In this document: one piece after another, positions 1 to 54,157 of the stretch | How the letters are laid out: the number at the start of each line of letters is the position of its first letter | How positions within the stretch are numbered: the first letter of the stretch is position 1 | Assembly (NCBI GenBank): GCA_028716245.1 | Contig: JAQUQW010000006.1 | Location: 1 to 54,159, forward strand | Direction: 5' to 3' | DNA length: 54,159 nucleotides | Source: Candidatus Omnitrophota bacterium | GTDB lineage: Bacteria > Omnitrophota > Gorgyraeia > Gygaellales > Profunditerraquicolaceae | The notes under the pieces: model-generated | Seen by the model: the letters and a program-made list of their open reading frames with translations, nothing else | Database searches by the model: none | Told to the model about the DNA's origin: nothing | Made by a program: the position numbers and the translations under genes

Positions 1-1
1 T

Positions 2-36000: not shown

Positions 36001-39000
36001 AAATTCTATCATTAATTACTAAGTCAGGACCTTTCTGTTCTATTGCTCTACGAAGATTGGTAATGTTATTTTCATCTGCCAATAGTTCTTTTATCTTATC
36101 CTCAATCTGCTCATCTACAATTTTCTGCTGCGCCTGCTTATTTATCTGGCTCATTTTATCGAACAACAATTTCTTCACATTAGTTACATTGCCATCATTT
36201 ACTTCTAAAAGCGCATTACGTAAACCTGCTTCTATCGAATCCCAAAGAGTAATGGTTATAACCAAACCAAAATTACCGTTTTGAGCCCTTGCCTGCCGTA
36301 AATTACTAAGCGTACTGGCATCATCTAATATTTTTTTTGCTTCTCGGCTAATCTTTTCATTAATAGTACGGTTTTCATATTCATTGTTAAGCATGCCCCA
36401 GAAATTTTCTTTGGCCTTATCTATATCATTGTTATTCCAGTTTAAAAGGAATTGTTTTAATTGTCCGGGTAAATCATCCCAAATAACATTCATATTATTT
36501 AAAATTATAGAACTTCTGGCTTCTTTATAACTTAGCTCTTTAGCAAGTTTTAACATTTCTTCTCCCATAAAGAAAGATAAAGGTAGTTGTTCCCTCTTCT
36601 TGATTTCTCTCTTTACTTTTTCTAAATAATCTTGCTGATTTTTATTTTCCAAATCTTGCCAAAGAGCTTCTGCGCCTTGAGTTTCTAAAGCATCGAGCTT
36701 AAGCCTGATTTGATATATTTTATTGAAATACTGACCAGCCTTACCTTTAATTACTTCTCCAAGATAAACGTAAGTCCCCTTCTTAAAACGATTAATGAGC
36801 CAAACAATTGGCCTTAATGTAACTAAAGCTATGATAATGCCTACAACAAGAACTGTAGCTAAAATGAAGATGCCGAAGACACCCATCTCTATTTTCTGTA
36901 TTAGGTTATAATTACTTTTCTTTGACGTCACATTGAACCGCCAAATCTTACAATCTGCCTTAAAGAATCCCCACCATAGCCTGGTCCCCACACTTAAAGG
37001 TGTTGACCCGGGATTTGCCAGGAATGGAACAGCAAAAGCAGAAACTACCATTAATACATAACTCCATGACCAGATTAACGTCAGATTCCAATAAAAAGAT
37101 ATGGCAATAATTGAAATAACCGTGAGAGTTAACCCATAACGAATATGGCTTCTCCTGTAATCATTATATAATGACGCGTTTTCTTCTTGTAATCGCCCTT
37201 TCGAATCAAATGGCTTAACCGCGAAGATAGGAATATGATGCAACATAAAGCCTCTTCCTGTTCCCACATACATCGCAATTCCATCCATTGCTTTTCGCAC
37301 TCCAAAAGCATAAGTAAATACCTGGGCCATAAAATAAGGCACCATACCTTCGATAAGCATCTTTGAGAAACTGCCTGTAGCTCTCACAAACCCTTTCTTC
37401 AGCATCATTTGAAAATAGCCTCCCAATGCGATAGCTTGCATAAGGAGTATCGCCAGCAGCCCGAAGATTATTTCTGAAGGAAATGAAGCAAATCCGCTTA
37501 TACCCAATAACAATAAAAGAATAATATACGAAGTAACACCCAATCTAACTATGGGTTTTCTCAAAAAGAACCCTATGGCACCGATGAAATGCGACATTAC
37601 CTGATCAAGCGAGAAATTAGAAGAAGTATTCAGTAAATACAAGTATCGGGATCTACCCTGTTCGCCGCCGCCCATGCCTAATTTTTCAAAAAATCCCGCG
37701 GTTTTCGAGAAAGCAACTTCTCTTGCTTTGCCTGCAAGAATAAATTCAAAAAAATCCACCGTATATCCTTTTAATACCAATAAGTATCCTCCGAAGATAT
37801 CTTCATTAACATAAGAAGGCAAAGATGAACCTCGCTGGCGAACATAAGTCTCATCCCAAATATCAGGATGTCCATAATGGAACCTGACTTTTAGTAGAGT
37901 AAGAACTCTGTTCGTCAAAGAGTTAAATGTTCCATCTGCAAGAGCGTTAAATTTAGCTATTGTGTTAAATGTTTCAGTAACTATATGTTCCGGGAAACCT
38001 ATAAGCTTAACTTGATCATCATATTTGAACTTTTCCATTAAATTAGGCATAAAAAACCATTGTTCGAGGTAGAAATCCTGATTAACATCAATGCTCATCA
38101 TCTTTTCTCCCCGAACATATCTTATGCCATTAGTTTGCCCTTCGGGTTTACCTTCGGCCAATAATTCCTTACCCGGCAAAGTGATACTCTGCGAGTGAAC
38201 AATCGTTCCAGAACTACATTTCGCTAGGCCGCTAGTAGCATTAAAGAAATAAGCTATTTGTAAAATCTCAGGATATTCTTTCAACAGCCAATCCAAATCC
38301 TTAAATTTTTGTATTTCATCTGGCTTTGTTGAAACAGAGAAATTCCGGTATTGGTCAAAAGCTATTACATACTGAAATTTCTCAAGTAATTTCTTATTTA
38401 TCTGCTCCTCAGTATTGCGAACAAAGAATCCCGGGTCCTCAATCCCCAATTTCCACTTTAGGATATCCCGATAATACATCATTCCCCTAATCGTTCTTGA
38501 TAAAGGCTGGAATGAATACGATGCCCAAAGCCTTACCTCCATTATCAAATCATCATTACCTATAACAAGTGGGGTACCATAAACCAGATTCTTCATCTTG
38601 TCAATTTCCTCTGGAGGATATTTCTTAGTGCTTTCTAAATATTCAATAAGGTTTTTCCATTCATCCGGGAAAAGTTTAATTAAATACGTCAGCGCCGTTA
38701 AACCGGTATTAAGAACTTTATTCAAATCCTTAAACTCATAAATGACTTCTTCGTTACCAACCGGAGTCATGATGCTGAGTGAAAAAAGCTGTTCCCATGT
38801 TGGAGCGATATCCATATCCATATGCAGCTGATCCGCAAACCAGATGATTCTTTCTTCTGCTGATTTGTTAAGCGGTTTTTTGCCCAAATTAGGTTCTGCG
38901 TTTATTTTACCTTTAAGATAGTCAGACGAGTTCTCTTCTATTTTGAACTCATATGCTTCAAGTTCTTGTTTGGACAACCTCTTTTGTAGATACAAAGCTG

Positions 39001-42000
39001 TTACAATCAAATTCCAGGCTTTTGCCCAAGCCATTCTTTTCTGCTCATCACTAAGACTTAAACTGGAAGGAATCATTTTATCCTTAAACAGCTTCTCAAT
39101 TTGTTTTTCATTAAATTTTTTATTTACTTGTTTCCAGGACTTTATAGTGCCAATACCGATGTATTTACCTTTCACATAACCTACAATTGCTTCTGATAAA
39201 TAAAAGAAGGTAAAAGTATCCAGGAAAAAGAAAATAATAAACGGCAACCAAAGGGCAACTATTACCAATGGGATCATGTTAAACCCTAAAATCAATAGCG
39301 CCCCTCCCCATAACTCATTTGTTACTATGCCTAAATTAAAGAATACAAAATAATTCCAAAGTACTTTTGGAATAAACACGCCTAAAATCCAAAATGCCCA
39401 TCTTGATACTTTTGACCAGATAGTAACTTTGGGAGATTTATATCCTTCGTCCGGCCTCACGGATGCTGAATGATTCTTTACTTCTAGCCATCTATCCAAT
39501 AATCTTTTACAGATTTGTAAACCTACTGCCAAGAGAATCAATCCGGCTGAATAATAAACCACCAAACCCGTGATTCCTATTCCCACTGACAGAAGCGCAA
39601 ATCCTGAAGCAATATAAAGCATAGCTAAAAGAATAGATAAGGGTTTGATGAAGTTCCTAAATGTACGCAGCCATCCCCTTATGCTAGAATTGATAACTAA
39701 ATATAACTTTCTGCCAAATATCTTAGTATCGATTATTATGCCCCCGCTTTTCTCCAGATATGTTTTCCAAATTACCGCACCCTCATCACCTTTATCCCAT
39801 TCTTGACGAATAAACTTCCAATACTCTTTAAATTCCTCAGATTTTAGGGTTTCCTGTTGTATTTTCTCTTTATTCGTAACCCCGTATTTTTCAATCAATC
39901 CATCACTTCCATTGATCTTATTAAACAATTTCTCTACTAAAGGTTTTAATCCAGCGATGAATTTGTCGTAATCGCCATTTTTAACCTTACTCCGATAGCT
40001 ATTTACGAAATTCTTGTTCCTGAATAAATCATCCATATCATCGTAGGTGATAAAATACTCTGGCGGCACCGAACCCGAAACATCGCGAAATTTTCCGGGA
40101 ACAGCTCCTTTAAACTGGCCAATTTGTAATTCGAGTATTTTATGCCACCGAGTAATTTCCTCTCTTATAAATAAAGCAACGACTGCTTTGGGTATTCTTT
40201 TTGCTTCCCGGAATAAATAGCTATGGAAAGCAGGAGTATAATAAGCAAAATTAGCAGCAGATCTATTGATTAATTGCCATAAATACAGATCTTCCAAATT
40301 CAATTCTCCGACTAAACCTTCCCCTTTTACCGTCTTTAACCACACTCTATACTCTTCAAAGTGCTCATCAATAACAGTTTGCATTTTCCGCTTGTTAACT
40401 GCCAGCCGTATCTCATCATTTAAATATCCTTTAGCCTCATCGACAACCCCTTGTTCAAATCCATAGTCTAGGGGATTATTTAACAAGTCATCAATTTCTT
40501 GTATCTCACTTTGGCGGTTTGTGTTTCTCCAAAGCAGGAAATTGGGTATCTTCCTCTTTTGCCTGCCTATAAAGCTAGCGATAATCCCTGTGATATAAGT
40601 TACGATTATTACCGCTAAGGGAACAATAATCCACTGTAATAAAGACCAAGAACGTAAATCCTGTACCCATTGTTCAAGTGTGCCAATTCTGTGTTTACCG
40701 TTGTCTTCGAGATTACCGTATACATCATATTTATATTCTTGCTCGTAAATTTTACTAGGAGCTGTCCCTTCCCTCTCATAAACCATCTGAATTGTTTTAT
40801 CTGAAAAATAATTTATCTGGCTCCAATTCTTCAGCCAAATTTTCTCTGTAGGGTCGAAACTAATTACCGGCCTTTCGTCGGAAGCTGAAACATTGAAATC
40901 AACGATTTCTGTGCCTTTAGTTATGGGTTGTGGTATAAAAGTATCTGACTTGGGGCGGTCATTTAAGTCTTGAATTAATTTCCCGGTGGGAATATAAATT
41001 TTATTCTTCAAAAGAATGGTTGAATCAGTATTATGAATATCATATATAAATACATGTTCATACGTTCCGTTCGTTAAATCTTTTACATTAACTTTTTCTA
41101 CTTTGTTCGTTGTTAGATTATACCAATCAATATAAGAAATCTTTTCTTTGTATAACACGCTCTGGATATCGTATCCCCCAAAGATCCCATCTTTTTCTTT
41201 AAATTCGACGCTTCCCGGCAACACGCCAAACGGCGCGGAGGTTTTATTTTGCTCAAATAGCCACAATCTATTTACAACGGTTTTGTTAGTGCTTTTAGAG
41301 GCAGGACTTACAGCTATAAGTTCTTTTCCTAAAAAGTCATTGGTAAAAGAATAGCTCTGGCTTGTAATCTTAGGATTATCCGAATATTTTGCATCGTCTT
41401 GTTTGGCTGAAATCTCACCCTCGAGGTTTAATTCAGTGTACTGAGTTTCGATTAGAGAAGCTGACTCATTAAAATTCTTGCCGAATTGCTTTGTATATGA
41501 ATTTAAATCCGAAATGAGCCCGCTGCCTGTATAGCCTAAATATTCCTTTTCAGCACCAGAATCAACTATCGCCTTGTATTCTTTTGTAATACGGTTTCCT
41601 TTTTCATCATATGGATGCCAATAGAATCCAACTACCCCCTTACCTTGCTTATCAACTACTAATGTCTTATCAAAGAATGGCCCATAGGCATCAACTCGCC
41701 ATCCGAGATTAATATTAATCGTAGGGCTGCCTATAGTATCTACGACTGTCGCGTCTTTTAAAGGATGCCCGGGAGAAGTATAGCGGTCTTCTATAGCCCC
41801 TGAAGCATATTCTCTCTGGTTTTTTGATAATGCAATACCGTGTTTTAACAATAAATCTAATTCCTGTTGCTCCGGTTGAGTTAAATTTATATTAGAGAAA
41901 CTAAGATTATAATGCGAGAGGTTCTCTACGGAATTTTGTTCGCCTTCGTAAGAACCTTTATAATATGGTACTTGCTCTCCATCGCGGATATGGTAGGCGC

Positions 42001-45000
42001 TTACATTCTGAGGAGTATCTTTTAGATTGCTCCATTCTCCATCAGCCCAAATCCGCTGTGTAGGAATCCAGGTTTGAGTTACATTGACCGTATTACCCAA
42101 TTTATCCACATAAGAATAAGGCTTATCTAACGGTTTAAAATACCCCTGCTCCTCGTAAGCCCAGCCGCCCCAGACCTGATAAGGATAATGCCAGCGATAC
42201 CAAACAATATCCGTACCGGGAATTGAATAACGTACGCGAAAATATCTGGTCTCTTCATCGGGGCCTAAACCGTATTTGGCATCTTTGGCATCAGCATTTT
42301 CCACTTCTAAAATAATATTGCCGCTGGCTTTATCGATAAAATAGCCATACAAAGGAATCCTCTCCAACCCGATAAATTGCGGAGCCACGAATATCGCGCC
42401 GTCGCGGTCAATAATAATGGTTCGCCCGATTTCATCTCCGGGAACATTATATTCAAAGAAAATTTCATTTCCGATTTTAGAGATCGTTTGAACGAGGCGC
42501 AAATCTTCCGCGGTTAAATTCTCCGGTGTCTTTTGTTTTATTTGGGCAATTATAGTTTTAATATCATCTTTCTGAGATTCGCTAAAATTATAGATATTAT
42601 TAAGGTCGACGAGTGCTTCTTGTGAATACATCGTTTTAAGTATCTCATATCTTGCCTTCGCGTCATTCCACTTAATGAGCATTGCTTCTTCGGGTTGATA
42701 GAAATTCTTATCCTGATATTTAGCGACATAATAAATATCTTTGAGGTCTAAAGAGGCGATCATTCTTGACCTGCCAAAAGCATCCACCTGGGGTTCGCTG
42801 TAAATATAGTTTAACGGCTGGCCTGCGCTGGTGCTAGCGGCAAACTTAGTAAGCCTAAACTCGCTAAGCGGGAAAGTTTTATTTTTACCGGTTTGAGGAT
42901 CATAAACGCTTAATTCTTTAAATTCGGAGGCCTCTCCCACCATACGCGTAACCGTTCCGATTGTGGGTTGAGATTCTGATTGAGCCAGTGGATTCTTAAA
43001 ATACTTAAATACCGCGGGGAAATTCGAAGGTACAGTCTGATTCGCTTGTGGTTGCGGATGTTCTTCGGGAACAGGAGGAGCACGGGCGGTAAGAGTTTCA
43101 TTTATTGCCGAAACAGGAACTTTGGTTTCATTCTGCCAAAGCCCGCGCATCTGAGACACAACTTCTTTTTCGGTTCCATTTATCGTAACCCAGCCAAAAA
43201 ACGCTTCGTTACCGAAGAAATCATAAGGAACATCAAAAGCAGCCCCTGAAGTAGCCTGGCTAGTAGCATTTCCTGCTTTCCAATACTCATCCTGCCAGGT
43301 CATAAAGGTAACGCCAAGAATATTCTTAGCCTTTAAAGAATTCCAGATATTCACATCTGCCGCGGCTTGTTCAGTTTGATTTTCTTTACCTTCCCGCATA
43401 TTATAAGAATCCGCGCCGGTTTCAGAAATATAAATTGATTTATTACCCGCGGCTTGCTTAACTTCATCGATTGTGTTGGCAAGGCTATCCCACTGATACG
43501 CGTTTAAACCGAAAACATCCACTGAAGGAACTTGAGCAATTACACTCTTTAGCGCGTCTTTAGCAGAAGGAGTGCCGTCATAACCGTAAGCAGTAGAAAC
43601 CGGATGGTTGGGATCTATCGCCTTTGTGGCATTGGCGGCTTTTTCCAAAGCCTCATACCAAACACTAATATTACCGTTAGACCATTCCGGATGATAATTG
43701 TTTTCATTGCCAAACTCCCACATCAAAACTGCCGGATGATTTTTATAGGTCTTAATATAGTTTAGATAAGTGCCAGTCTTTATATCCGGACCTGGATTAT
43801 AGCGGTCATCAAAATAAGGGAATCCTACGATTACCCGGATATTATTTTTAGCGGCTAAATCCAACACATCCGGCATCGGCGGATAATAGGTTCTTATTGT
43901 ATTTATCCCGGTTTCATTCATCTTCTGAAAATAGGTTTCATTTACTGAATTGAGATTAAAAACAAAATCGCGCTGCCCCTTACCTTGAGGAACCGTAGAA
44001 AAGGTAACCCCGCGGATTTTATAGCTGCTATTGCCGACACTGAGCTGATTATCTTTTACAGTTACAGGCGTAATCTCCGGGTAAGTTTTTACCTCCGCGG
44101 GGAAATATGACTTATCCAGCGTAAATTCAATCGCCTTTGGCGCGGAGTAAATTCCTTTTGGATAAACCATTTCGATATTAAGGTCGGTTAAAGTTAAACG
44201 CGGCTCACTATAAACGCCATCATAAACAACATAGACCGTTTTATTTAATTCACCGAGGTAAAGAGTTCTCTTATAAACGGTAAACTGTGACTGATTCTTA
44301 AAGCTATTGATAAATTTATTAAATTCATTCTCAAAGTCATCGCTTCTATTGGTAAACCTTACTCCCTTTTGTTCTAAAAATCCGCGTGAATCTTTAACGC
44401 CAACAGTGCCTATACGAACATCCTGCTTCTTAATATCTCCTGCCAAGGAATGAGTAGTTTTAATCACTTGCCCCTTATCATTTACTTCATTAAAGAATTT
44501 ACCTGTGCTTTGCTCCAACTCAATCAAATTGCCTCTGGCATCTAATTTCTGAAACTTAGTTTTTCCTTCGGCTAAATTTATTTCCAGCATATTCACTACT
44601 ATCCCGCCTTTATTGGCTTTAAGCGGGATGAAAATGCGGGAAAGCTTTCCGGTTAAAGAATCATAAGCGCTAGCGGGAATATTATCTTTATAAACTATTT
44701 TCTCTTCGGGAGTAAGCTGATAAAGATGTTCGGCCTGACTGTAAGCGTCTATAATTATCTGGTCATTTAAAACATCTACTTTCTTAATAATATTGATGTA
44801 GTCCTGATTCTCGACCTCATAAACATAAAGGACATTATTCTTGGTCTCATATACCGGTTCGCCATGCTGATCAACACCTATCTGCACGGATATCGTTATA
44901 CCTCTCTCTTTAGAAGTATCTACGGTATAATAGGGATGCTTCAATCCATTCATCCGGTCATAATAAGTCAATTCCTCAAGTGAAACATCCCAATTCGCCA

Positions 45001-48000
45001 GAAGCGTGGCCCCTTGATAGACCTTATAGAAAACCTTATTTATATCTTCCCATGTTTCTTTAACTACCACGCCTTCATTTATGCCGGTAACTCGGCTTAC
45101 CATCCCCTGCGTATCCTCTTCTCCTGAATAGTGGCTTTGAAGTTGCTGCGCTGCAGTGGGTGCCTTCCCAACGCTGGACTTTATCAATGTATTCGGCTGC
45201 TGCTCATAACTTGTGCCATTTTTAATGATTATATCTGCCCCCGTAGAAAAGACGGGATTACCGAAAGAATTCTTTTGTGAAGGAGTAAGAGAATTATAAG
45301 TTTCGGGGGTAAAATATCTGATTTTATCCTGCTGCGTCTGGTTATTTTTCCACCATATAGCCATTCCGCTCTCGCTGCTTTCAACCAGATTTACAAACTT
45401 CCAGGTATCTGTTTCATTAAGAGTAATATTCCATTTCGAGCCCGCAGCCTTTTCTTTTGCCGCTTCAAAAGGAGTCAATTCGTTAGACGAGATGTTAGGA
45501 ACTATTTCCGTAGTATTTTCTGCTATATCTTGCTGGTGCATTTCATTAGATATTACATCATTTCCTGCGTTCGAGTTTTGATCGATAGCGTTATAAGAAT
45601 CCAGGTTAACCGCATCATCTTGATGTACATCGGCTGGATGGGCAAGAACTGGGGTGACAAACCAAGCGGCAGAGACAGATAAAATAGTAAACATGGCAAA
45701 TTTCGCATTTAGGTTATTTTGATTATTTTTTTCTTTTCTCTTTCTCTTGTACTCATCATGCTCATGTCTTATATCCCATACCTCTTCTCTATATAAAATA
45801 TTTCTTATTTCTTTTTCAGATTTAATTAAAAGGCTCACGTAGAATTTGTCTGATACAGTGATTTCGGGCGGGATCTTATATTCTTCTTCCATAAACTTGA
45901 CTTTTGAAACCATCGTTTTAGGCAAAGATTCATATATCTGCTTGCGATATGCATTGATTAATTTCCTGATGTTTTCCGGGCGTTTTAAAACAAGTATCGA
46001 TACATCAGATAAACCGGTATCTTCTAATATCTGCCGAGCGGCCTTTTCTGTCTTAATCCGCAGTAAATCTTTGGTGAATTCCATCTTCACCTGTTCCGAA
46101 TCTGCGAATAATTTCCATTCGCCATTTTGCAGCCGAATGATAATTACCATAATCATAATTACGGCTGTAATCACAAAGAAACTCCAAACATCATTCATCG
46201 CCACCCCTTCTGCCGCCAGGGCTGGGGTGGCCGTAAGCAGCAGACCGAAGATAACTATGCCCGCGGTTTTCATCATGGGATAGAAAATAACAAAAATATT
46301 GCCATTGACAAATTTAATGGTATATGCTAATTTATTTTTGATGGAAGAAGATGTGTTTTGGACAGATTCACGCAGACAGTTAATTGCAAAAGCGTTAATA
46401 AATTTATTCCAGGCATTAGTAATTGCCTTATTTATTTCAGAAGCTTTTGCTAAAGCAACCGCTCTGTGGAAATTATTTTTTCTTTCTGCAATGCTTTCTT
46501 CTTTAATAGCGGCTATTTTTGTATGTCCAACAAAAGATCCTAAGGAGGATTGAAATGACTGCTTTAATAACTTTAACCATAATCTGCCTGGTAATCTTAA
46601 TTTGGTTTGGAATTGATCAATATCGCCACAAGCACGTTCACTAGACACCGGCCCCGCCCTAAGCAACCCGCCGTCCTTAATCATAATATCTCTATATATT
46701 GATCCGCCATCGCGCTTTAAGAAAGCATCTTCTCCCGCCTTAATTTCTTTCGATTCCATCTTCCCTGAATTATTCTCTTCGGGATTGCCAAATAATGACT
46801 TATAAAGATTAATTCGAGGCCCAAATACTCCTGAAAGCTTCCAGCTAATAAATATAATTATTATTACCGATGGAATTGTAAGTAATCCCCAATAAGGATC
46901 CGAGATATCATATGGTATAACTTTTAATATCGAACTCCAGAAGATCGTTGTTCCCACAGAAAAATCAGCGACGATAGGTCTTTCAAGAAACAAAAGCCCA
47001 AGGATATCCTTTAGCATATACACAAGGGTAAATATGAAACTGCCGATTCCGATCCCCGCAAGAAACATTCTTTTCATATTAAATTTTTTAATTACTAAAC
47101 GTATTAAATAAAAACTTATTGTTAAATCTAATATATTGGGCACAAAATTACTCAATAATTCACTAATCTCCCGCGGAAGATAGACCTGGTGTCTTTGGAT
47201 ACTATAATTCGGGACAGCTAAAGGCGCTGCAAGTCCGGAAGCAAACTGTTCAGGGGCCCCGGTTTCAACAAAAGGCAAAATCTTACCTATCAATCCATAC
47301 GGATCCATAGAAGGATTCAATATTAAACCATTAAATTTATGCGCATCATATGTTAACGGTTCAAATATGGCATAATGGAGAAGTTCATGTGGCAAATGCA
47401 TTATTGCAATCACTATGGGCAGAGCTGTTAAAGCCGATCCTGACAAAAGAATAATGACGCTAATTAAATCAGATACGCCTTCCTGTCTGCTGAACTTTCT
47501 GATAGAATCTCGAATTCCAGCAAAATTGAGGACGGTTCTATTTTTTCTTGCTCCCAATCTCCAATAAGAAATAATACCAATTAAAACAATGATCCCTGTA
47601 ATTCCTGCCATGATAGGAGACATAACAACTATCCCCGCCCCCCCCGCCGCCAGGGCCGGGGCAGCTAGAGCACCTTTTACCGTAGGCGCAGTGAATAATA
47701 AAAGTGAAGCAAGCGCGAGGATCCAAAGCCAGACTTTCGCGGGAACTTTCTTTATAAAATCTACTACCCTATTGCCGCCATCATTGGACTTGGTTTCTCC
47801 TCTTTCCTGCGCTAAAGGTTCTAAACGTTCTTTGAAGAATTGTGTCAATAAAACATACTTACCTTCCTCAACGGATTTTTCATCGGCAGCCTCCAATGCT
47901 TTAAGCAACTGCACTAAATCCTTCATTTTTCTATATCGTCCCACAATGCTCAAACCGTCTAACTTATATTGATTAATTGTAGTTTTAAGATTAAGCGGAT

Positions 48001-51000
48001 AATATCCTTTAGATATAAGAATTATATCTACCAGCTTACTCGCTGTGCGGCCGTTTCCATTATTATAAGGATGTATAATAATAAACTTATAAAAAGTTTC
48101 TACCAGAAGATTTTCTAATTTAGTATTGCCTTTTATCCACATCGTATTAAGCCAATCTATATATTCTTCCATACTGCGAGGAATATCTTTTGGATCAACG
48201 AGTTTTAAATTTTCTCTGGTACCTATAACCACCTTCTCTGTTCTTAAACCTAAGTAAGAAGGAGAATTTGGATTGCCTGTTTCATCTAGCTCTCTCCCGC
48301 GAGCAACGATAACTTCTTTGTGCAATTTGTTTATAATCTCTTGGCTGATTATTCTTGGGGCATCTTTACTTAGCAGGCCGCCGTCCAAAGCGCGGTTAAT
48401 CTTTTCAGCGGATCTTTCTTCCTTTAACCTTTGAAGTTCTTTTAATATCCTGCCTCTGCCGATTTTCTTAATAATCGCGCCCCTGATATCTTCCATTGAA
48501 ATCTGAAGCGGGAGCATTCGCGCATTTATCGCTTTCAGGTTAAATTCTATATCCACCGCCGCGGAAAGCAGGTTTTCTTCCGGCCCGCAAAGCATTAAAC
48601 GCGCGTCAACAATCTCTGCTCCCGCGTTTAATGCCGCCTTTAATGCGCTAAAACCTCCTGTTTCCGTATTTGTCGATGGCACGCGAGATTCAGCAGAAAA
48701 ACTATTTTTATCTAACCGATCTAACGTAAATTGCATGGGCTTAGCTATCTTGCCTTTTACATATAGAATACCTCTCCCTTTACGGCTCTTCAGGTTGTTA
48801 ATTAAACCAATAAATAATAAATTTGATATTCTGTGCCCTTGATAATCGGGAGCAACAAATAGGAATGATACTTCAAGCGCCAAAGGATTACCCCTGTCTT
48901 CATCCACATCGACAAAACCAACGGCCTGTCCTTGTTTATTGCATACAACAACAGAATTACCGCTTAGAGATATTCCTCGCTTGCGCATAAAATCAATTAC
49001 CTGAGGGTGATAGTTTAATTTACTGCCGATATCTTTAAATGCTTTTATCTCAACCTGTCTTGCCATCACGCGCAGCAGGGCTTTCTTATGGGCTTCACGA
49101 TAAGCGGGAACATCAGGATAGATATTTGCCAAAAGCGGACCGAGATGTCTATTTAATACAATGAATTTCTCTAAAGACAGGCTTTCATTTTTACCGCAAA
49201 AGATCTCTATTAACCCGGCATAGTAATCTTCGATTACGCCTTCTGCTTTGGTCATAGCATTAAGCCCTTTTATTTTTTCATTTTCAGTTTGGGCGTCAAA
49301 CACCTTCCAATGCCCTTCTAAAATCCTGCCTATAATTTCAGCGTTATTAACCTGTTTAACTATATCGGCTATATTTTTCCCGCTTAATTGCGGCCATTCG
49401 CCGGTATTAATTATCCGGGTAACGGCGGATTTGAGTTCAGTTGAGACATCTTTGGATTCGTAAAAATATTTCTTCATCACTGCTTTATATATATCTTTAT
49501 TGCCGGCGTTAATGCTAAAACTTTCCTTTATTATCCCATACGCTTTTTCTTTAATCCCCATCGCAGTTGCTATCAATATCAATTGTAGATAGAAACCAAA
49601 ATCTATTTTCTTGGCTTCTTTTATTGATAAAGGTTTTGCGATTATGCTTTTCAGGATATAAAGGTAAGTTTCTCTGATATTGGAGGTTGGGAGAGCGTAT
49701 TCGGAAACCTTCCCCGCCGGCGTAGCTACGACAAACTTCTTGCCCTCTATTATGAGGTTATTGAAAACCTCATCCCGAAGCTTAAGCTGTTCAGAAACCT
49801 CCTGTAATAACATCGAGTTACTTTCTTTACCCACAAAATATTTAAATAACATATTCGATTCTCTCGATATCTCTGTAGTAACTTCTGGGGGATAAATCTC
49901 TTTGCGCCTATTAGCTTCCGCGATTACTTTTTCATATAAAATATATTGTTTACGGATGGCGTTCCTGAATTCCCTTACCTTTTTTGCCCTTGCGAAATCT
50001 TTTAATGAATATTTCAATGTCATTACTGTGTCTTGAAATGTCCCAACGGCGGCTGCTGCGCCCTGCACATTTTCGGATTTTTTGAGATGCCCCAACTTTT
50101 CCTCCAGCCCCCGGATCTCTTCCGCGTTAATGATTACTCTTAATGAATCTATTCCTCGTGATATTATGTTAAAAGTTTCTTGGGGATAAGCCCTCCCCTC
50201 TTCTCCGGCTTCCTCAAGCGCTTCTTTGAATAAATCATATTTTTCAGAAAATCCTTTTTCAATATTTTCATATCTTCCGTCATTGAACCAGATTGACTCC
50301 CCGGTTAATTTCTTGGATGCTTGTATAAGCCTCTTTATCGGATAAAGCCTGTTTTCTTGATTCGCTTTATTTATTTCTGTTAATGCTGCATTGAAGTCAA
50401 ATTTATCTTCTAGCACTCCGCCGTCGGCGATAATCAGCTCACCTTTTGCTTCTAAATCAAAACGTACCCTAAACCTCTCTACTCCGCCAACTAGAGCTTT
50501 ATCTGCTTCTTTTAGCATTACCCTTACTTTTAAACTATCTGCTGCCTTCTCTTCAAATTTTTTATAGAACCGAACTGCTTTTTTATTGTCTTCTCTAACC
50601 CACAACAATGCCCATTTTTTCTTCTCAACATTTTTAATATGCCTTAAACCTGCTTCTAATAATTTAGTCCCGATCCCCCCATTTTTGAGTGAAACTGCTA
50701 TGTAAGGAATAAGAGAAACATTACTCAAGGCCTCTAAATCTACATCCTCTACAATTACATACCCTACATAGGCATTGTCTTTGATGGCAAACCATACTCT
50801 ACTCTGTTGCGCAAAACCTTTATCTGGCTGGCCGGTAATTAATTTCTTAATCAGTAAGTTATGATCTACGCCGTCTTCTTCGGGTAATCCTGCCAAAGCG
50901 TTGATCTGTCTAATGATTGCGACCACTTCCGCGCTATCCAGGCCTAGCTCTTTAGTCGTCTTAATAGCAATGTTACCGCCGTCAAGAGAAACTTCTCTTG

Positions 51001-54000
51001 TTATCAGTTGTTCCGGAGACCCCTTGAGGTTCTTGCTCTGGAGGAGGGAATTTCTCAAGAGGCCTCCAGGAACAACAATAGCCGGCTCGATTAAGGAGAT
51101 ACCTGCCACGGTAAGTATCCCTAATGTAAGCAGCGGCTGGGTAACAAATAAAATAGCCCCGACCAACGCTAACACAAACCAACCTGCCACGGTAGGTTGA
51201 ATAGACCTGGTTGAGCCAGGGCTAAATCTTGCTGAATTAGTTAGTTTCGACTGTATTGACCCTATAGACTGGAACGTTCTGGCGGGCGCGGCTGATACAA
51301 TACCTGATATGGTCGGCGACCGAACCGACAAGCTCTTTCCATGCATCTGCCTGGGCATTATGGGCATAGACGGAGCCTGAATCTTTAACCAGGAAGATCC
51401 TAATCTTGTTACTGCCGTGCTCACGGGCTGCGGCAAAGGTTGAGTAGTCGCTTGTGGAATCGATGATGTGGTGAATCTTAATGGCTTCGAGCTTAATGGG
51501 AGACATAGCACACCTCCTTTTAAGGTAGTGGTTAAGGTTGAAATAATAATAGCCGCGAATGCTATTCCTGTTAAATAAAGAATAGCCTGCGGCTTAGTTA
51601 AGGTGTTATGTATGGAATTTATTAGGGTTTGAGGAGCTAAAGCGGAAAGGCCAAATAGCACTGCGGCAGCTATTAAGGCATTGATAAGCTGCGCAGGCGG
51701 GCCGCGCACAAGGCGTGCGCCAAGCTTGGCCGGATAATTAACTAATCTTGTATAAAAACGGTTTAATTTACCGGCTTCTCTGCCAACATGCTCTTTAGAT
51801 TCAACATCTCCAATTGAACTATCTGTCTCATCTCCTGCAACCGGCGAATTCTGTACTGATTGTCTAACTCTGCCATTGTTTCCCTCATTTCCTGAATTTT
51901 TATTGGACTTAACATTTTTTCCTCCCGTGGCTAATTGGTTAATTGCATTTACCACAAAACGCACAATCTTAACCAATGGAGGAGCCAATGAGAAAATCGA
52001 CTTATCAATGTTTGTCTGGGATATCGGCAGTGATTTAGCTTCTTTTACTTCGGACTTGGAAATACCGCCTAAGGCTTTTCTTACGGAAGCGATTAAACTG
52101 CGGCCTGAACCAAATAGGCACCCTGCCAATTCAGCTAAAGCATCCTTTAAGTTGGCATCTTGAACCGGCAAGAAGAAAGCGTTTTCATGGCCATTTCTAT
52201 ATGGGAACCTGCCAGAATCCGGTAAGGCGTTATTGGCCCTGCGCTGCACACCCGGTAATGACAATCCGCTAATCACCCTAAATACGCTTGCCGCCATCTC
52301 AACTATACTGCTTAGGCCCGCTCGAATTGCCCCAAGCTCAATCTTTATCGCGTTTATCGCTAACCCACCGTCTGATGCGTATCTGCCTACAGAATTATTT
52401 AAGATATCGAATACGTTATTCAATATGTCAAAGGTATTCTTGGCCTTGTCTTTATTCTCTGCTACAACCGTCTGATCGCTGATGGATTCAGCTGTTTCAA
52501 CAGCATCTGCCGCTGCTCTTGCTTCCAATTCGCCTCTTACATAGGCATATTCTCTTAACGCCTCAAATGTATTGGTTAACTGAATAAGTAATACAAACAC
52601 AGCTTCAAACTGTGACACAGAAAGCCCAAATCTATTCATAAGACGATGGGCAAAGCGAAGCTCGCTTCCGCGTAAACGTCCTAATCCGCGTAATGCGATA
52701 GCGTTCATAAGCTTTTTAACAAGAGGCGCAACGATATCATCTTCGCGGCGGACAGCTTTATCACTTGAACCAAGCTGAATAAGATAATTCAGCAAATTTA
52801 TAGCCGCTTTCTGATTTTTCGTGAGGTTCTCTAAGGCGCTGGCGGAATTATTAAGGACATCTATTGCATTACGGAGATCGGTGTCATTGCGAGCGGAGCG
52901 AAGCAATCTTAATTCTAACTGATTGGCTAAACTGCGGAAGGTATTGGCAAGTTCGGCGAATATAGCTTCCGGAGGGCTAAGGCCATTGCTTATTTTGAGA
53001 ACAGAAGAAAGACCTTCCACATCCCCTATTTTTACTGTCCCGGTTGCGTCGCAAGGAGCCGCGGACGAAGCGGCAACCCCAGCAGCTGCTCCACCATGGC
53101 CCATGTCATCACCGGCTGCCTGAATACCGGTGTTTGCCGGAGCATTTGCTCCTGTTGCATCTGCATCGCTAGCCCCTGAATTGGTACTTCCCGGATTATT
53201 TCCTGCGACTGAACCTGCGCCGCCATTGCCGCCGTTATTATTATTTGCATTGCCATTGTCACCATTGTTGTTACCATTATTTGTATTACTATTGCTATTT
53301 GTATTATCGGTATTGCTATTTGCGCTATTGCTTGCACTGCTGCTTGTGCCGCTGTTGCTATTATTGTTAGCATCTATACCAGTTCCACCAACATTCTTAA
53401 TTGCTTTCTGCTCTGTTTCACTTAATAAGTTACCTTCTAATTTTTCACTCTTAATTACCCCTTCTTCTACAATCAATATAAATCCACCATTAATTATAAA
53501 TGATTCATCAAGCTTAATCTCGCCATAACCAGCAACATGGTTATCTCCATTATCTTCTGCATATCTAATTGTTGTCCCCTTAATACCATATATTTGTAAA
53601 ATGTGATACTCATCTTTCCCAGAAGGCCGCACTATACTTACTTTATCAAGATTTCTCTTAATTATACCAATGGCCTGATCCATTTTTCCCACTTTTATCG
53701 CGCTAGGCTTTTCTTGCCTTATAGATTCTGCCTCTTTGTACTCTCCTGCATTTTCGTGTTCTGTAGCAACCTCATCATAAACCTGTCTAATAGTCTGTAA
53801 ACCAGTATACAAATCCTTAACTACATATGAGCCAAACTTAGCGGCACCTACCAATTCACGAAGAAGTTTATCCGCTCTCTCCCTAACCCTAAAATTCTTA
53901 GCTATGCCAATCAAGCAATCCACCACATCCACTACCCCTGTACGCCGACGTAGCTCATCTGTACGCGCATGTGCATCAATTGCTATTTCTTTAACCTTAG

Positions 54001-54157
54001 TTACCTCTGTAGCTGTTCTTATTGCTTCTTGTTTTGCTGCTCCTGCTTCTTGTTTTGCTGCTCCTGCTTCTTGTTTTGCTGCTCCTGCTTCTTGTTTTGC
54101 TGCTCCTGCTTCTTGTTTTGCTGCTCCTGCTTCTTGTTTTGCTGCTCCTGCTTCTTG
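2..54157 (-). CDS. Giant multidomain protein, partial at both ends (at least 18,052 aa); Omnitrophota-like giant gene
   Basis: The same minus-strand frame (codon first base = 1 mod 3) translates as sensible protein at both window ends and in every stretch I checked by hand, with no TAA/TAG/TGA. No ORF in the supplied track uses this frame, as expected if it never meets a stop. More than 25 recognisable domains lie in this one frame. Confidence 0.93.
330..640 (-). other. Small zincin-like HExxH module of the giant CDS
   Basis: ANAPPERE...LIVIFRHEIKHLINP; HEIKH at 383-397. Confidence 0.5.
750..1340 (-). other. hxlB: 6-phospho-3-hexuloisomerase-like SIS domain, copy 2 (domain of the giant CDS)
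   Basis: VFLGAIGRSD, ILLIVSGSGNT, ILITADPHSELAGLADFCIPIKG, SRSNFE, C-terminal KKEHSK: PHI/SIS pattern, partly degenerate. Confidence 0.75.
1390..1880 (-). other. hxlB: 6-phospho-3-hexuloisomerase-like SIS domain, copy 1 (domain of the giant CDS)
   Basis: LFINASGRSQIAG, KGDLVLAVSGSMGT, ILPLGSTFELL match PHI motifs. Confidence 0.8.
1970..2630 (-). other. hxlA: 3-hexulose-6-phosphate synthase/OMPDC-family barrel, copy 3 (domain)
   Basis: PKLIVALD, FKAKFPDKEIIADLE, GADAVYLH, IIIVGE; the family DxK lysine is replaced by E. Confidence 0.75.
2650..3240 (-). other. hxlA: 3-hexulose-6-phosphate synthase barrel, copy 2 (domain)
   Basis: LRKEFPEKKIVADLK, AFEAGADV, VPIAAAGGV, AGVKVIIVGGAIYNADNP. Confidence 0.85.
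3330..3700 (-). other. Partial (N-terminal half) hexulose-phosphate synthase barrel, copy 1 (domain)
   Basis: LLQVALDLID...AGGADWVEAGTPLIK is the typical HPS N-terminus; the sequence after it is divergent and truncated. Confidence 0.7.
4600..6870 (-). other. pgm: Phosphoglucomutase/phosphomannomutase (alpha-D-phosphohexomutase), full-length domain
   Basis: FGTAGIRG, IGYDSR, ISASHNP (Ser at 6254-6256), GTDPDADR, GAEESNGF, DKDG, IRPSGT. Confidence 0.95.
6960..7960 (-). other. Class I SAM methyltransferase-like domain
   Basis: MLDIGPGYPP, VVGLE, IIQGD, VRAFNVMTYY, VEEGGYIIVG. Confidence 0.6.
8050..8800 (-). other. Pol-beta-superfamily nucleotidyltransferase (class I CCA-adding/OAS-like) domain
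   Basis: LGSTARLTYIGNNPDFDI (GSxARxT...DxD), then IDL and KGGFVSVNTEQLLLQAGSF, which resembles the class I CCA-enzyme GGFSG..ELL...GSF segment. Confidence 0.6.
8950..9920 (-). other. 2H phosphoesterase-like domain with an internal insertion
   Basis: Two Hx(S/T) motifs: SALHMSI (~9730) and GLHISLGR (~9130), about 200 aa apart. Confidence 0.5.
10200..11400 (-). other. HAD-superfamily (type IIB, PMM/Cof-like) domain
   Basis: AVDMDLT (DxDxT), VSANE, FGGSTSIDC..DANKKGA, AIDDEMSSNGVGFD. Confidence 0.65.
12050..12540 (-). other. Nudix-fold (IDI-like) domain with a degenerate Nudix box
   Basis: HKTGQWHANSQIL, VLIQVR, SAAGHLFSDENYDKAAERIIFDETGI. Confidence 0.7.
12880..13440 (-). other. gmk: Guanylate kinase-like domain
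   Basis: GPSGSGKST Walker A at 13388-13411, RTTTRNPR, HRFVSEKQF, HYGFRYA. Confidence 0.85.
13560..14190 (-). other. Uridine kinase/PRK-like P-loop domain, degenerate
   Basis: VIGIIGLPYVGKKTLA, DVLIITGSY, IDFLTGI...TRLERKI. Confidence 0.6.
14250..15010 (-). other. HD-domain phosphohydrolase, copy 2
   Basis: QHSLQV...AALLHDTG...DHMQIGA...IEVHD...READR. Confidence 0.85.
16560..17090 (-). other. HD-domain phosphohydrolase, copy 1 (GlnD-HD-like)
   Basis: THTLEV...LLHDLGK...HPEIGA...EKH...IAD. Confidence 0.8.
17350..18400 (-). other. GDP-hexose phosphorylase (VTC2/GDPGP1-like HIT) domain A
   Basis: GFNF, PLAKGHIMILP, KIGFNSWGAWGSVNHQHLQG (17942-17990), FFEVGG. Confidence 0.85.
18780..19720 (-). 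other. HIT-type nucleotidyl phosphorylase (VTC2/DUF4922-like) domain B
   Basis: FNTSPIW...HMTV...HQ, NGW...AGASQAHSHAQ, SFNIL, ASSEFG. Confidence 0.7.
20150..22010 (-). other. L-fucose-1-phosphate guanylyltransferase-like domain (pyrophosphorylase half of FKGP), copy 1
   Basis: IPDPEGVRVGNGGA, ILIQAGGFGTRY, SKTLMPIP, LNGD, LGIV, FLEKP, YIDYGD, then a beta-helix-like segment; no GHMP kinase half follows. Confidence 0.8.
22380..23150 (-). other. DUF4922/Ap4A-phosphorylase-like HIT domain C
   Basis: VQINPNR...GCFLCPEN...PNPNPY..NHVV...FNSLNSAASSGHFHYQ...YNILF...FPR...CEMSGML. Confidence 0.8.
23290..24020 (-). other. YdcF/DUF218 (ElyC/SanA-like) domain
   Basis: LLMLLGNDD, IICCGG, TGEALIMANILIKQGVPKERIRLELRSQNTNDN, ILMQKPLQQRRA. 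Confidence 0.85.
24070..25620 (-). other. Sugar-1-phosphate nucleotidyltransferase (FKGP-like), copy 2
   Basis: VVITAGGQAQR...IGK, IYGD, ATKYGM, KFQEK, WYDTG, and a C-terminal DDVK...IFPV...SIED segment like fucose pyrophosphorylase. Confidence 0.65.
25840..28000 (-). other. pgi: Glucose-6-phosphate isomerase-like (double SIS) domain with a C-terminal extension
   Basis: VITSGIGANEM, MSRSGSTKETL, GDIGGR, QLLNEGGNK, and a NPAVK segment correspond to PGI motifs. Confidence 0.7.
28380..29200 (-). other. Class I SAM methyltransferase with an N-terminal Zn-ribbon
   Basis: CAICGS...KCHNDGFMWLNPQP; VLEVGFASGYLL; EGVDIS; SFDVV...DTLEHIPSP...ILKPEG. Confidence 0.9.
29260..29640 (-). other. Cupin domain (WbuC-like)
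   Basis: PHVH...HEIMIVLSG, GDII...GHSL, LLEIKQGPY. Confidence 0.75.
30090..30480 (-). other. Second small zincin-like module
   Basis: INGPPLKI...NTVHI...YFVAHHEFILHAY; same layout as the 330-640 module. Confidence 0.4.
30640..31900 (-). other. Radical SAM domain with a SPASM/twitch extension
   Basis: CQYHCPTC (Cys codons at 31766, 31754, 31745), FTGGGEPLL, FTDG, RISFNAG; C-terminal CLAC...DGTVYHC...YGNLKEQTLAEIWNS...CPPVC. Confidence 0.95.
34090..34790 (-). repeat. HEAT/PBS-lyase-like repeat array (about 7 units)
   Basis: Repeated VRSxAAxALGxLG...AVEPLIxAL and GPAAKAAIPALIEAL units, with exact nucleotide duplications inside the array. Confidence 0.92.
35132..35326. repeat. Near-perfect 99-bp in-frame tandem duplication (33 aa)
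   Basis: Copies start at 35132 and 35231; they encode LLEEKVELEKQALLDANKRNQDQVQIxxKEIL. Confidence 0.95.
36820..39750 (-). other. FKS/callose-synthase-like beta-1,3-glucan synthase (GT48) catalytic domain with flanking transmembrane segments
   Basis: RLWASYSFQPLSRTIRGMMYY (~38470-38535), EGKPEGQTNGIRYVRGE, IDVNQDFYLE, GFPEHI, VRFHYGHPD (~37862-37888), VNEDIFGG, GKAREV, GMGGGEQ, all in the canonical FKS order. Confidence 0.92.
43130..44080 (-). other. Clan GH-A (beta/alpha)8 glycoside hydrolase (GH2-TIM/GH158/GH72-like)
   Basis: IRGV, GINTIRTY, HPAVLMWEFGNE (acid/base Glu at 43703-43705), DPNHPV, VDVFGLNAY, ISETG (nucleophile Glu at 43421-43423), TWQDEYWK. Confidence 0.88.
46305..46333 (+). 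promoter_or_regulatory. Sigma70-type promoter for the nested antisense operon
   Basis: Perfect TTGACA at 46305-46310, 17-nt spacer, TG-c-TAATTT extended -10 at 46325-46333; the ATG at 46341 sits at the expected start site. Confidence 0.65.
46341..46553 (+). CDS. Nested antisense small membrane protein (70 aa, 2 TM), probably leaderless
   Basis: MEEDVFWTDSRRQLIAKALINLFQALVIALFISEAF...IAAIFVCPTKDPKED; upstream promoter; its 3' end carries the SD of the next ORF. Upstream in-frame starts at 46299 and 46317 are possible. Confidence 0.7.
   Translation: MEEDVFWTDSRRQLIAKALINLFQALVIALFISEAFAKATALWKLFFLSAMLSSLIAAIFVCPTKDPKED
46555..46644 (+). CDS. Nested antisense single-TM micro-protein (29 aa), translationally coupled
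   Basis: TAAGGAGG at 46541-46548, 6 nt before ATG 46555, which is 1 nt after the upstream TGA; MTALITLTIICLVILIWFGIDQYRHKHVH. Too short for the supplied ORF track. Confidence 0.7.
   Translation: MTALITLTIICLVILIWFGIDQYRHKHVH
46800..47500 (-). other. Membrane-embedded HExxH (M50/DUF3267-like) domain
   Basis: A TM helix leading into MHLPHELLHYAIF (HELLH at 47375-47389), followed by several hydrophobic helices. Confidence 0.5.
47850..48360 (-). other. Fic/Doc domain
   Basis: INKLHKEV...LGLRTEKV...VDPKDIPRSMEEYIDWL...FIIIHPYNNGNGRTASKL (His at 48071-48073). Confidence 0.9.
48720..49020 (-). other. GNAT acetyltransferase-like domain B
   Basis: AVGFVDV...LEVSFLFVAPDYQGHRISNLL. Confidence 0.7.
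50500..50900 (-). other. GNAT acetyltransferase domain A
   Basis: YVGYV...PYIAVSLKNGGIGTKLL...LLWVREDNKKAVRFYKK. Confidence 0.85.
51237..51506 (-). CDS. Nested same-strand, different-frame gene (89 aa hypothetical protein)
   Basis: AAGGAGGT SD at 51519-51512, 5 nt before the ATG; globular-looking sequence; upstream promoter. The giant frame across this stretch is S/P/T-rich and looks out of frame. Confidence 0.75.
   Translation of the reverse strand: MSPIKLEAIKIHHIIDSTSDYSTFAAAREHGSNKIRIFLVKDSGSVYAHNAQADAWKELVGSVADHIRYCISRARQNVPVYRVNTVETN
51546..51574 (-). promoter_or_regulatory. Sigma70-type promoter for the nested 89-aa gene, embedded in an inverted repeat
   Basis: TTAACA (51574-51569), 17 nt, TATTAT (51551-51546). 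Inverted-repeat arms AGCCGC/GCGGCT and GCTATTC/GAATAGC span 51551-51594. Confidence 0.55.
53030..53370 (-). repeat. Low-complexity Asn/Ser/Gly/Ala-rich linker of the giant CDS
   Basis: DANNNSNSGTSSSASNSANSNTDNTNSNSNTNNGNNNGDNGNANNNNGGNGGAGS... Confidence 0.9.

Follow-up and report, generated by a model that had tools for sequence, protein, structure and literature searches.

A probable 89-aa gene nested out of frame within a giant open reading frame of Omnitrophota

The window analysed here comprises positions 1 to 54,159 of contig JAQUQW010000006.1 of a Candidatus Omnitrophota bacterium (assembly GCA_028716245.1). One minus-strand open reading frame (ORF) occupies it from end to end: minus frame '-2' holds no stop codon, against 584 to 1,929 in each of the other five frames. 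Inside this giant ORF, on the same strand, lies a small ORF encoding 89 amino acids (aa), preceded by a strong Shine-Dalgarno (SD) sequence. A second nested ORF of 50 aa sits 257 nt upstream of it in the other alternative frame. Coordinates are collected in Table 1. From the comparative evidence presented below, the 89-aa ORF is very likely a genuine coding gene, lodged for good in another frame of the same strand within an Archaeovorin-type ORF of more than 54 kb, with internal initiation at the small gene and read-through of the giant frame.

Table 1. Position of the giant frame, the nested ORFs and associated features in the window (TM, transmembrane; DGG, Asp-Gly-Gly). The most-substituted codon positions are those of the giant frame in the sliding analysis of five loci.
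Feature	Position	Strand	Remarks
Giant open frame	1..54157	-	18,052 codons, 0 stops; runs off both window ends
Nested 89-aa ORF, ATG...TAA	51237..51506	-	one base behind the giant frame (giant = small+1)
Shine-Dalgarno AAGGAGGTG	51511..51519	-	4 nt before ATG of the 89-aa ORF; 6 nt from GGAGG core
Second nested ORF, 50 aa (MLSPIKIQEMRETMAELDNQYRIRRLQEMRQ...)	51763..51915	-	other alternative frame (giant = its frame +2)
SD-like GGGAGG	51921..51926	-	5 nt before ATG of the 50-aa ORF
Giant-frame TM-like stretches between both nested ORFs	51520..51697	-	LINALIAAAVLFGLSALAP..., AILYLTGIAFAAIIISTL; Kyte-Doolittle scan
Giant-frame TM-like stretches just past the 89-aa ORF	51056..51205	-	VAGWFVLALVGAILFV...LGILTVAGISLIEPAIVV; Kyte-Doolittle scan
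Conserved island, ~1.7 kb	51240..52900	-	giant-frame identity 0.4-0.6 vs 0.1-0.3 outside; five-locus sliding analysis
Giant-protein module holding both nested ORFs	50983..52380	-	bounded by two DGG motifs (D codons 52372, 50983)
Most-substituted position 3	52,900-52,000		giant frame coding
Most-substituted position 1	51,922-51,781		third position of the 50-aa ORF
Most-substituted position 3	~51,700		giant frame, TM-like stretch (row 51709)
Most-substituted position 2	51,535-51,238		third position of the 89-aa ORF
Most-substituted position 3	downstream of 51,238		giant frame

Pfam recognizes many domains in the giant frame across the window that are of types normally found as separate proteins. 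They comprise GNAT acetyltransferases, Fic, GH2, 1,3-beta-glucan synthase and HEAT repeats; radical SAM with SPASM, methyltransferase, fucose pyrophosphorylase, DUF218 and DUF4922; and phosphoglucomutase (PGM/PMM), guanylate kinase, OMP-decarboxylase/HUMPS and SIS. The nearest relatives of the locus are Omnitrophota metagenome-assembled genomes (MAGs), where the nested protein is 96% and 84% identical. Judged by size and taxon, which agree, and by a domain set that agrees in part, the host ORF is probably an Archaeovorin-type giant gene of Omnitrophota. Such genes were described by West-Roberts et al. (2023, bioRxiv 10.1101/2023.11.21.568195), with a domain set of glycosyl transferases, glycosyl hydrolases, methyltransferases, SAM-dependent enzymes, peptidases and NUDIX; giant ORFs of Omnitrophota were described too by Seymour et al. 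(2023, PMC10066038) and in a 2026 preprint (10.64898/2026.06.07.730766). Domains of this set found at E<=1e-5 in the 18-kaa (thousand amino acids) excerpt of the giant frame were glucan synthase, GH2, methyltransferase and radical SAM, and no peptidase, NUDIX or SecA domain reached that threshold in the Pfam search of the same excerpt. The host ORF and Archaeovorin-type giants are alike in taxon, size class, part of the domain repertoire (glycosyl transferase/hydrolase, methyltransferase, radical SAM) and the presence of many hydrophobic segments. A word search of the three reports gave no mention of alternative-frame genes, polyprotein sites or DGG, whereas the present host has nested genes.

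The sequence upstream of the 89-aa ORF reads AAAGGAGGTGTGCTATG, with AAGGAGGT and then 5 nt before the ATG; AAAGGAGGTGTGCT precedes the ORF. The 8-mer AAGGAGGT occurs only twice on the minus strand in 54 kb; in the giant frame, the SD is read as K-G-G. The initial annotation had reported a same-strand nested ORF with this start signal, leaving its strand (minus) unstated, and the sequence agrees. Because the giant frame has no stop in the window, all 90 codons of the small ORF overlap it, as had also been claimed. Over the overlap, the giant frame reads LCLPLSSKPLRFTTSSIPQATTQPLPQPVST..., with few charged residues and a Ser+Pro+Thr (S/P/T) fraction of 0.40, versus 0.14 for the whole giant protein, and local guanine-plus-cytosine (GC) content is about 0.50, versus 0.386 for the window. 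The region is flanked on both sides by TM-like stretches, which agrees with the early description of S/P/T-rich filler between TM segments. A hydrophobic stretch lies within about 35 residues past the nested gene in 7 of the 8 lineages scanned, including the distant L007 and L011; in L014, none was detected by the Kyte-Doolittle scan in the downstream sequence available.

Codon shuffling of the giant ORF served to gauge chance within the window. ATG ORFs of 89 aa or more arose in an alternative frame in 18.6% of the shuffled versions, and such an ORF with GGAGG before it arose in none of 1000. The 89-aa and 50-aa ORFs are the only alternative-frame ORFs of at least 40 aa with a strong SD in the whole window. 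It is the comparative data that decide against chance.

An exact look-up of the window's 89-aa protein returned no record. Eleven close homologues (86-90 aa) display 73-88% identity, and a profile search of 1.84 billion representatives yielded 60 clusters, nearly all of 81-109 aa and matching end to end. DNA context was analysed for the close clade (loci L001-L005 and L017, among which are two MAGs of Omnitrophota, another labelled Planctomycetales, and contigs from Hainich groundwater) and for five more distant nested lineages (P0012, P0013, P0021, P0016 and P0044, corresponding to loci L006-L016, with GC up to 0.51). An intact ORF of 86-99 aa was present in all 10 lineages, which extend down to about 35-40% identity and cover a GC range of 0.38-0.51. 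Every nested lineage carries GGAGGTG (GGAGGG in L001) before the ATG, at equal distance. Frame small+1, corresponding to the giant frame, is stop-free over the entire contig (up to 20 kb) in L002-L005 (12-20 kb each), L006-L008 and L010-L016. In L009, the frame switches about 1 kb downstream of the small gene. In L017 it breaks just upstream of the small gene at an N-run scaffold gap, for which reason a natural split of the giant ORF was rejected there. By these comparisons, the nested arrangement is ancient and shared, always in the same relative phase (small+1).

Substitution patterns indicate which frame is constrained. Pairwise substitutions at the first, second and third codon positions of the small frame numbered 234, 161 and 574, respectively. 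The Nei-Gojobori ratio of nonsynonymous to synonymous substitution (dN/dS) was 0.06-0.27 in the small frame, and 0.9-6.8 for the same nucleotides read in the giant frame. These values show protein-level purifying selection on the small frame. The giant-frame product over the overlap behaves as a sequence-unconstrained, low-complexity linker between hydrophobic segments, in keeping with the linker role that the initial annotation had assigned to this frame. When five loci were aligned on the giant frame and analysed in sliding fashion, the most-substituted codon position changed repeatedly along the alignment (Table 1), and constraint hops among all three frames within 700 nt.

The openness of the giant frame was assayed by keeping the small protein fixed and redrawing its synonymous codons from the locus's own codon usage. 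Per locus, the giant frame was open in 0.00-0.58% of these shuffles; it is actually open in 9 of 10 loci. The remaining (third) frame over the 89-aa ORF contains 7-13 stops. Synonymous sites between the major lineages are near saturation (proportion of synonymous differences, pS, 0.46-0.72), so openness cannot be mere inheritance. On this evidence, the giant frame is kept open by selection. Indeed, with at least 51 kb of giant coding sequence downstream, a stop at this point would be very costly, and selection on the synonymous sites of the small gene would be correspondingly strong.

How the frame is kept open shows in the choice of wobble bases. Wobble C accounts for 0.38-0.49 of codons in 9 of 10 nested ORFs (0.28 in L005), versus 0.14-0.28 at the giant frame's own wobble position, and wobble A in NTN codons before A or G, the sole context that can create a stop, was found in 0 of 143 cases. 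A wobble C of the small frame is the middle base of a giant codon (Ser, Pro, Thr or Ala), which explains both the GC bump and the S/P/T filler. At codons without stop risk, C was observed 215 times for 128 expected and T 143 times for 203 expected. This enrichment of C where no stop is at stake suggests translation of the giant-frame product, with selection favouring a polar over a hydrophobic character. Taken together, kept openness and polar wobble choice indirectly indicate that the host frame is functional (translated) across the overlap. The initial annotation had proposed dual coding and had pointed to synonymous-site constraint as a sign of it; purifying selection on the small frame, and a giant frame open against at most 0.6% by shuffle, bear out both.

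The structure of the 89-aa protein was predicted with AlphaFold2 from a 52-sequence alignment. The predicted local distance difference test score (pLDDT) was 89.9 and the predicted template modelling score (pTM) 0.80, with all five models above 83; in an earlier modelling of the same protein, 1 of 5 models was confident. The predicted fold consists of five strands, one helix and a final strand. Judging from this model, the 89-aa product is a real, compactly folded protein that matches no known family or fold. A toxin-antitoxin or defence pair was considered and set aside, as Pfam, NCBIfam and PADLOC gave no significant match. The best toxin-antitoxin or defence match was JetD (E=0.012 over a coiled-coil stretch), which falls short of any threshold.

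The 50-aa ORF behaves likewise within the close clade. Its start signal is kept as GGGAGGA, AGGAGGA or GGAGAGGAG in all copies, of which there are seven in the window and L001-L005 (two of them in L003) and two more in L017. Two database homologues of the 50-aa protein were found. Substitutions at its three codon positions numbered 282, 210 and 504. The giant frame is open in 7 of 7 tested copies, with a probability of openness of 0.001-0.017 each under synonymous shuffling, and the third frame contains 7-10 stops. Purifying selection acts on each of the two nested ORFs in its own frame. No 50-aa ORF was detected in the 300-640 nt available upstream in those nested lineages that are more distant. 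The initial annotation had counted the 89-aa ORF as a second, independent example of engulfment. Its independence was not borne out: the 50-aa ORF lies in the same ~1.7-kb island and accompanies the 89-aa ORF in every close relative.

The 50-aa segment is tandemly duplicated at a distance of 0.84-1.1 kb in L003 (8476-8628 and 9580-9732) and L017 (4285-4437 and 5125-5277); the two L017 copies are identical and may cause assembly problems. Just upstream of the 50-aa ORF, at ~51920-52060 on the minus strand, the motifs ISKSEVK...SLAPP(V/L)...AINQL are conserved in the giant frame. The three codon positions are near-equally conserved there (0.25, 0.28 and 0.30 differences per site), which hints at an extra nucleotide-level constraint, for instance an internal promoter or RNA element.

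We infer from the sequence that both frames are translated and that initiation is internal. Ribosomes in the giant frame would read through the small gene, and this segment would form a Ser/Pro/Thr/Ala-rich, unconstrained loop between hydrophobic membrane segments. Other 30S subunits would load at the internal SD AAGGAGGTG between passing ribosomes and start at the ATG, giving a free, folded 89-aa protein. The 50-aa protein, which is predicted to be helical, would be made likewise from the third frame. Meanwhile, the small gene's synonymous sites would keep the giant frame stop-free and polar, each wobble C producing an xCx codon. The small proteins may act in trans as accessory factors of the giant protein, expressed along with it from one mRNA and kept separate from the polyprotein. 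The reason why they were not fused in frame could be that they must stay free of the membrane-anchored polyprotein, or that they are needed at a different dosage.

Several observations weigh against a nested gene expressed in this way. The coverage-2 contig L001 is an exception to giant-frame openness, with one TAA at L001:724-726. This stop results from a single C>A difference from the near-identical L005 (ATC>ATA, Ile), which is synonymous in the small frame; it is either a read error or a natural truncation, and it illustrates the outcome expected without the openness constraint. The loci share descent, and the per-locus openness probabilities are therefore not simply multipliable. Wobble-C enrichment could come in part from the codon bias of a highly expressed small gene. 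The TM-like calls are those of a hydropathy heuristic only. Foldseek searches of the Protein Data Bank (PDB) with both 89-aa models found no neighbour with E<0.08 or a template modelling (TM) score above 0.45, and Pfam, NCBIfam, PHROGs and PADLOC searches with the 89-aa protein, eight distant homologues and the 50-aa protein gave nothing above threshold. Finally, a neighbour-joining (NJ) tree does not settle between engulfment of the small gene and a later escape of free copies.

Free-standing homologues, which the initial annotation had suggested looking for, were found among distant relatives only. P0054 (L018:2592-2885, 97 aa) stands in an operon in the order methyltransferase, GT2/GtrA, GYD, the 97-aa protein, SDR and DUF1761, and has 7 and 8 stops in its two other frames. 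P0073 (L019/L020:10001-10306), on a 1.62-Mb Omnitrophota contig, follows an 860-aa Ser/Thr-rich protein with five C-terminal repeats and precedes dprA-topA-xerC; its other frames contain 4 and 7 stops. The free-standing homologues begin at the same Met as the nested ORF. In the NJ tree, which is poorly resolved, the free-standing copy P0051/P0073 falls inside the main clade, and P0054 falls in the basal clade after midpoint rooting. As side observations, the L018 operon is of glycan type, and in L019 the end of the upstream ORF overlaps the first 8 nt of the small gene.

The most likely origin of the arrangement, as we infer it, is a free-standing small gene that was overrun as neighbouring ORFs fused into the giant ORF. 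The existence of free copies, the folded small frame facing a filler giant frame and the invariant phase all fit a pre-existing gene overrun in this manner, and the comparison points to a single ancient absorption event. The absorption of an intact gene, as put forward in the initial annotation, therefore holds in part. Free homologues, and a folded small product next to a disordered-looking giant product, speak for it; the event is ancient and shared and not particular to the present genome, and its direction is not fixed by the tree.

Four other explanations were weighed, all of them less well supported than internal initiation with read-through. The first reverses the order of events: the small gene would have been born de novo inside an existing giant ORF (overprinting), and the free copies would be later escapes. 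We consider this improbable. In its favour, all close and moderately distant relatives are nested in the same phase, and one free-standing copy, P0051/P0073, lies inside the main clade of the poorly resolved tree. However, the small protein is folded and constrained, and the giant-frame product is low-complexity and unconstrained. Of two overlapping frames, the one that arose de novo usually encodes the disordered product with a biased composition; by this criterion, the giant frame would be the younger reading here. The basal position of the free-standing P0054 also argues against overprinting.

Alternatively, the act of translation might matter and not its product. The nested ORFs would then be ribosome-loading sites on a long mRNA, serving termination-reinitiation into the giant frame or protection from Rho. 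The very strong SDs deep in the giant ORF fit this idea. GGA-GGN is avoided elsewhere in the DGG motifs of the giant frame, and in L007, L008 and L011 gene callers propose starts for the giant frame close to where the small ORF stops. It is nonetheless quite improbable. The low dN/dS and the confident fold indicate that the 89-aa protein itself is selected, and no conserved giant-frame start codon or SD was found past the small ORF's stop. Moreover, a fresh start downstream would need no open giant frame over the overlap, yet that frame is kept open.

A programmed -1 frameshift into the small frame, with the SD acting as stimulator in a dnaX-like manner, would give a shortened form of the giant protein with the 89-aa domain at its end. 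The small frame is indeed -1 relative to the giant frame, and SD-stimulated frameshifting has established precedents, SD-like internal sequences having this effect in dnaX and prfB. Against it, the ATG is kept at canonical spacing after GGAGGTG in all lineages, and no X XXY YYZ heptamer lies downstream of the SD (giant codons TTA AAA GGA GGT GTG CTA TGT). The sole A-rich run, TTAAAAG, is upstream of the SD and varies by lineage (ACCTTAAAAGGAGG, ACTCAAAAAAGGAGG, TCACAAAAAGGAGG, TTTGTAAAAGGAGG). The small frame is closed shortly upstream, its open stretch (51240-51593) beginning 87 nt before the ATG, and the free-standing homologues share the start Met. A search of Rfam at E<=1 over 50500-52700 returned no match and no frameshift element. 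Such a frameshift is very unlikely.

That two genes flanking a normal small gene were joined by a sequencing or assembly error or by chance openness is hardly credible: public gene calls do split the region so in L001 and L007-L012, and L001 and L017 show the stop and the frame change described above, but a stop-free small+1 frame recurs across 10 lineages that were assembled independently, the probability of openness by chance does not exceed 0.6% at any locus, and the two breaks are a single substitution on a coverage-2 contig and an N-run gap. The recurrence of the arrangement in these assemblies also rules against the sequencing error, splitting or joining the giant ORF, that the initial annotation had allowed for.

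Firm cases of same-strand, out-of-frame nested genes are very rare in cellular genomes. The present case is old and evolutionarily clean, and both alternative frames are used. As far as the account in bioRxiv 10.1101/520783 goes, only comS in srfAB and Thermus rpmH in rnpA were described as nested genes of this sort before Ribo-RET. In Thermus thermophilus, rpmH is nested in rnpA (Feltens et al. 2003, cited in bioRxiv 10.1101/520783). As at our locus, a small gene, intact and conserved, is contained in full within a larger ORF of the same strand that is read in another frame. Over the small gene, the larger frame behaves as an extension or linker in both cases, which fits a neighbouring ORF overrunning a pre-existing gene. 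The rnpA host is a small neighbour with an N-terminal extension, whereas the present host is a multi-enzyme ORF of more than 54 kb with an internal overlap, situated at least 10 kb from either end in L003-L005. In addition, two nested genes are found here in two different alternative frames, each with a predicted product that matches no known family.

The other described case is Bacillus subtilis comS, out of frame in srfAB (D'Souza 1994 and Hamoen 1995, cited in bioRxiv 10.1101/520783). The likeness lies in a small (46-aa) trans-acting protein encoded out of frame in a very large multi-module enzyme gene. Translation of comS begins at a start codon of its own within the host gene, which places it under the same regulation as the host operon; no regulatory role is ascribed to the 89-aa gene. 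comS is restricted to a narrow Bacillus group, whereas the 89-aa arrangement spans lineages down to about 35-40% protein identity. The srfAB host frame over comS encodes a constrained enzyme domain. Here, in contrast, the host frame behaves as an unconstrained linker and the nested gene is the constrained partner.

Same-strand overlaps are also found in phages, for example lambda Rz1 within Rz and phiX174 E within D, in the +1 or -1 frame and with their own ribosome-binding site (RBS). Such overlaps belong to viral genomes kept compact by limits on their size, and as a rule neither product is free of constraint. The 89-aa ORF resembles them as a complete embedded gene with its own RBS, and differs in lying in a cellular genome with a host frame that reads as filler. 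Giant ORFs and nested genes were thus each already known. What is new is the small-protein family and the kind of gene that hosts it; two cistrons occupy the two alternative frames, and the arrangement is deeply conserved.

The locus suggests that the largest bacterial genes grow by overrunning their neighbours. As one conserved island in a fast-evolving region, it also provides an entry point for studying the production of giant proteins. The wobble-C rule amounts to a simple way for one gene to let another frame pass, which may be useful in the design of overlapping genes. In the public gene calls for L001, L007, L008, L010, L011 and L012, the small gene is called and either a new 'gene' is begun after it or the upstream part is left uncalled. 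Since standard callers break or truncate the open giant frame at the small gene, giant ORFs are probably fragmented, mis-split and under-counted in databases.

A broader and more tentative proposal, which we regard as possible but doubtful, is that the Omnitrophota giants are 'swallowed operons'. In-frame fusion of adjacent genes would have created a polyprotein, in this lineage possibly cut at DGG. Genes for products that must stay free would have been kept as intact cistrons in the other two frames, and the polyprotein would cross each of them as an expendable loop. On this proposal, the 89-aa and 50-aa proteins would be ancient, obligatory trans-acting partners in biogenesis or control of the giant protein, and the locus a cassette that codes in three frames and is conserved throughout a bacterial phylum.

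The DGG motif occurs at 27 sites in the giant frame of the window, for 4.3 expected, versus 1 site for GGD and 3 for GDG. Examples have their D codons at 52372, 50983, 50425, 48385 and 47782. Spacing is mostly 186-1300 aa, with one pair 12 aa apart and one gap of 3,866 aa. DGG is also enriched in the relatives L002 (8 sites vs 1.6 expected) and L003 (21 vs 1.9), and is absent from L004, L005 and L007. The first Gly codon is GGC or GGT in 25 of the 27 motifs, GGAGG being avoided; DGG is therefore not an in-frame SD (GGAGG) in disguise, and this explanation was rejected. A possible role of the DGG motifs is double-glycine-type processing of a polyprotein; C39 peptidase domains have been reported in Omnitrophota giants (bioRxiv 10.1101/2023.11.21.568195).

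Promoter and terminator scans of 50900-52500 gave counts not above those of shuffles. A TTAACA-17-TATTAT match is located at 51574-51546 on the minus strand, 27 nt before the SD of the 89-aa ORF, in a stretch that is not conserved in L003. Between the TM-like stretch and this SD, L002 (~9890-9960) and L003 (~9900-9960) carry a palindromic in-frame insertion (GGGGACGGTTCTGTTTT...AAAACAGAACCGTCCCC, arms of ~17 bp) that leaves the giant ORF unbroken and is absent from the window at ~51540. A miniature mobile element is one possible identity for this insertion, an RNA hairpin just upstream of the nested SD another.

Of the ORFs listed for the window, only two plus-strand ones, at 12753-13214 and 31281-31742, reach 150 aa, each being exactly 153 aa long. 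They were dismissed because they are mutually unrelated, have no SD and occupy the antisense frame in which stops are fewest; they probably represent the usual open antisense frame of a coding region. An N/S/G-rich low-complexity tract of the giant frame at 53030-53373 (minus strand) contains, in an alternative frame, a 113-aa ORF (53032-53373) made of I/A/Q/T repeats and lacking an SD, most likely a by-product of low complexity. The giant frame itself opens the window with (QEAGAAK)n repeats at 54030-54157 on the minus strand.

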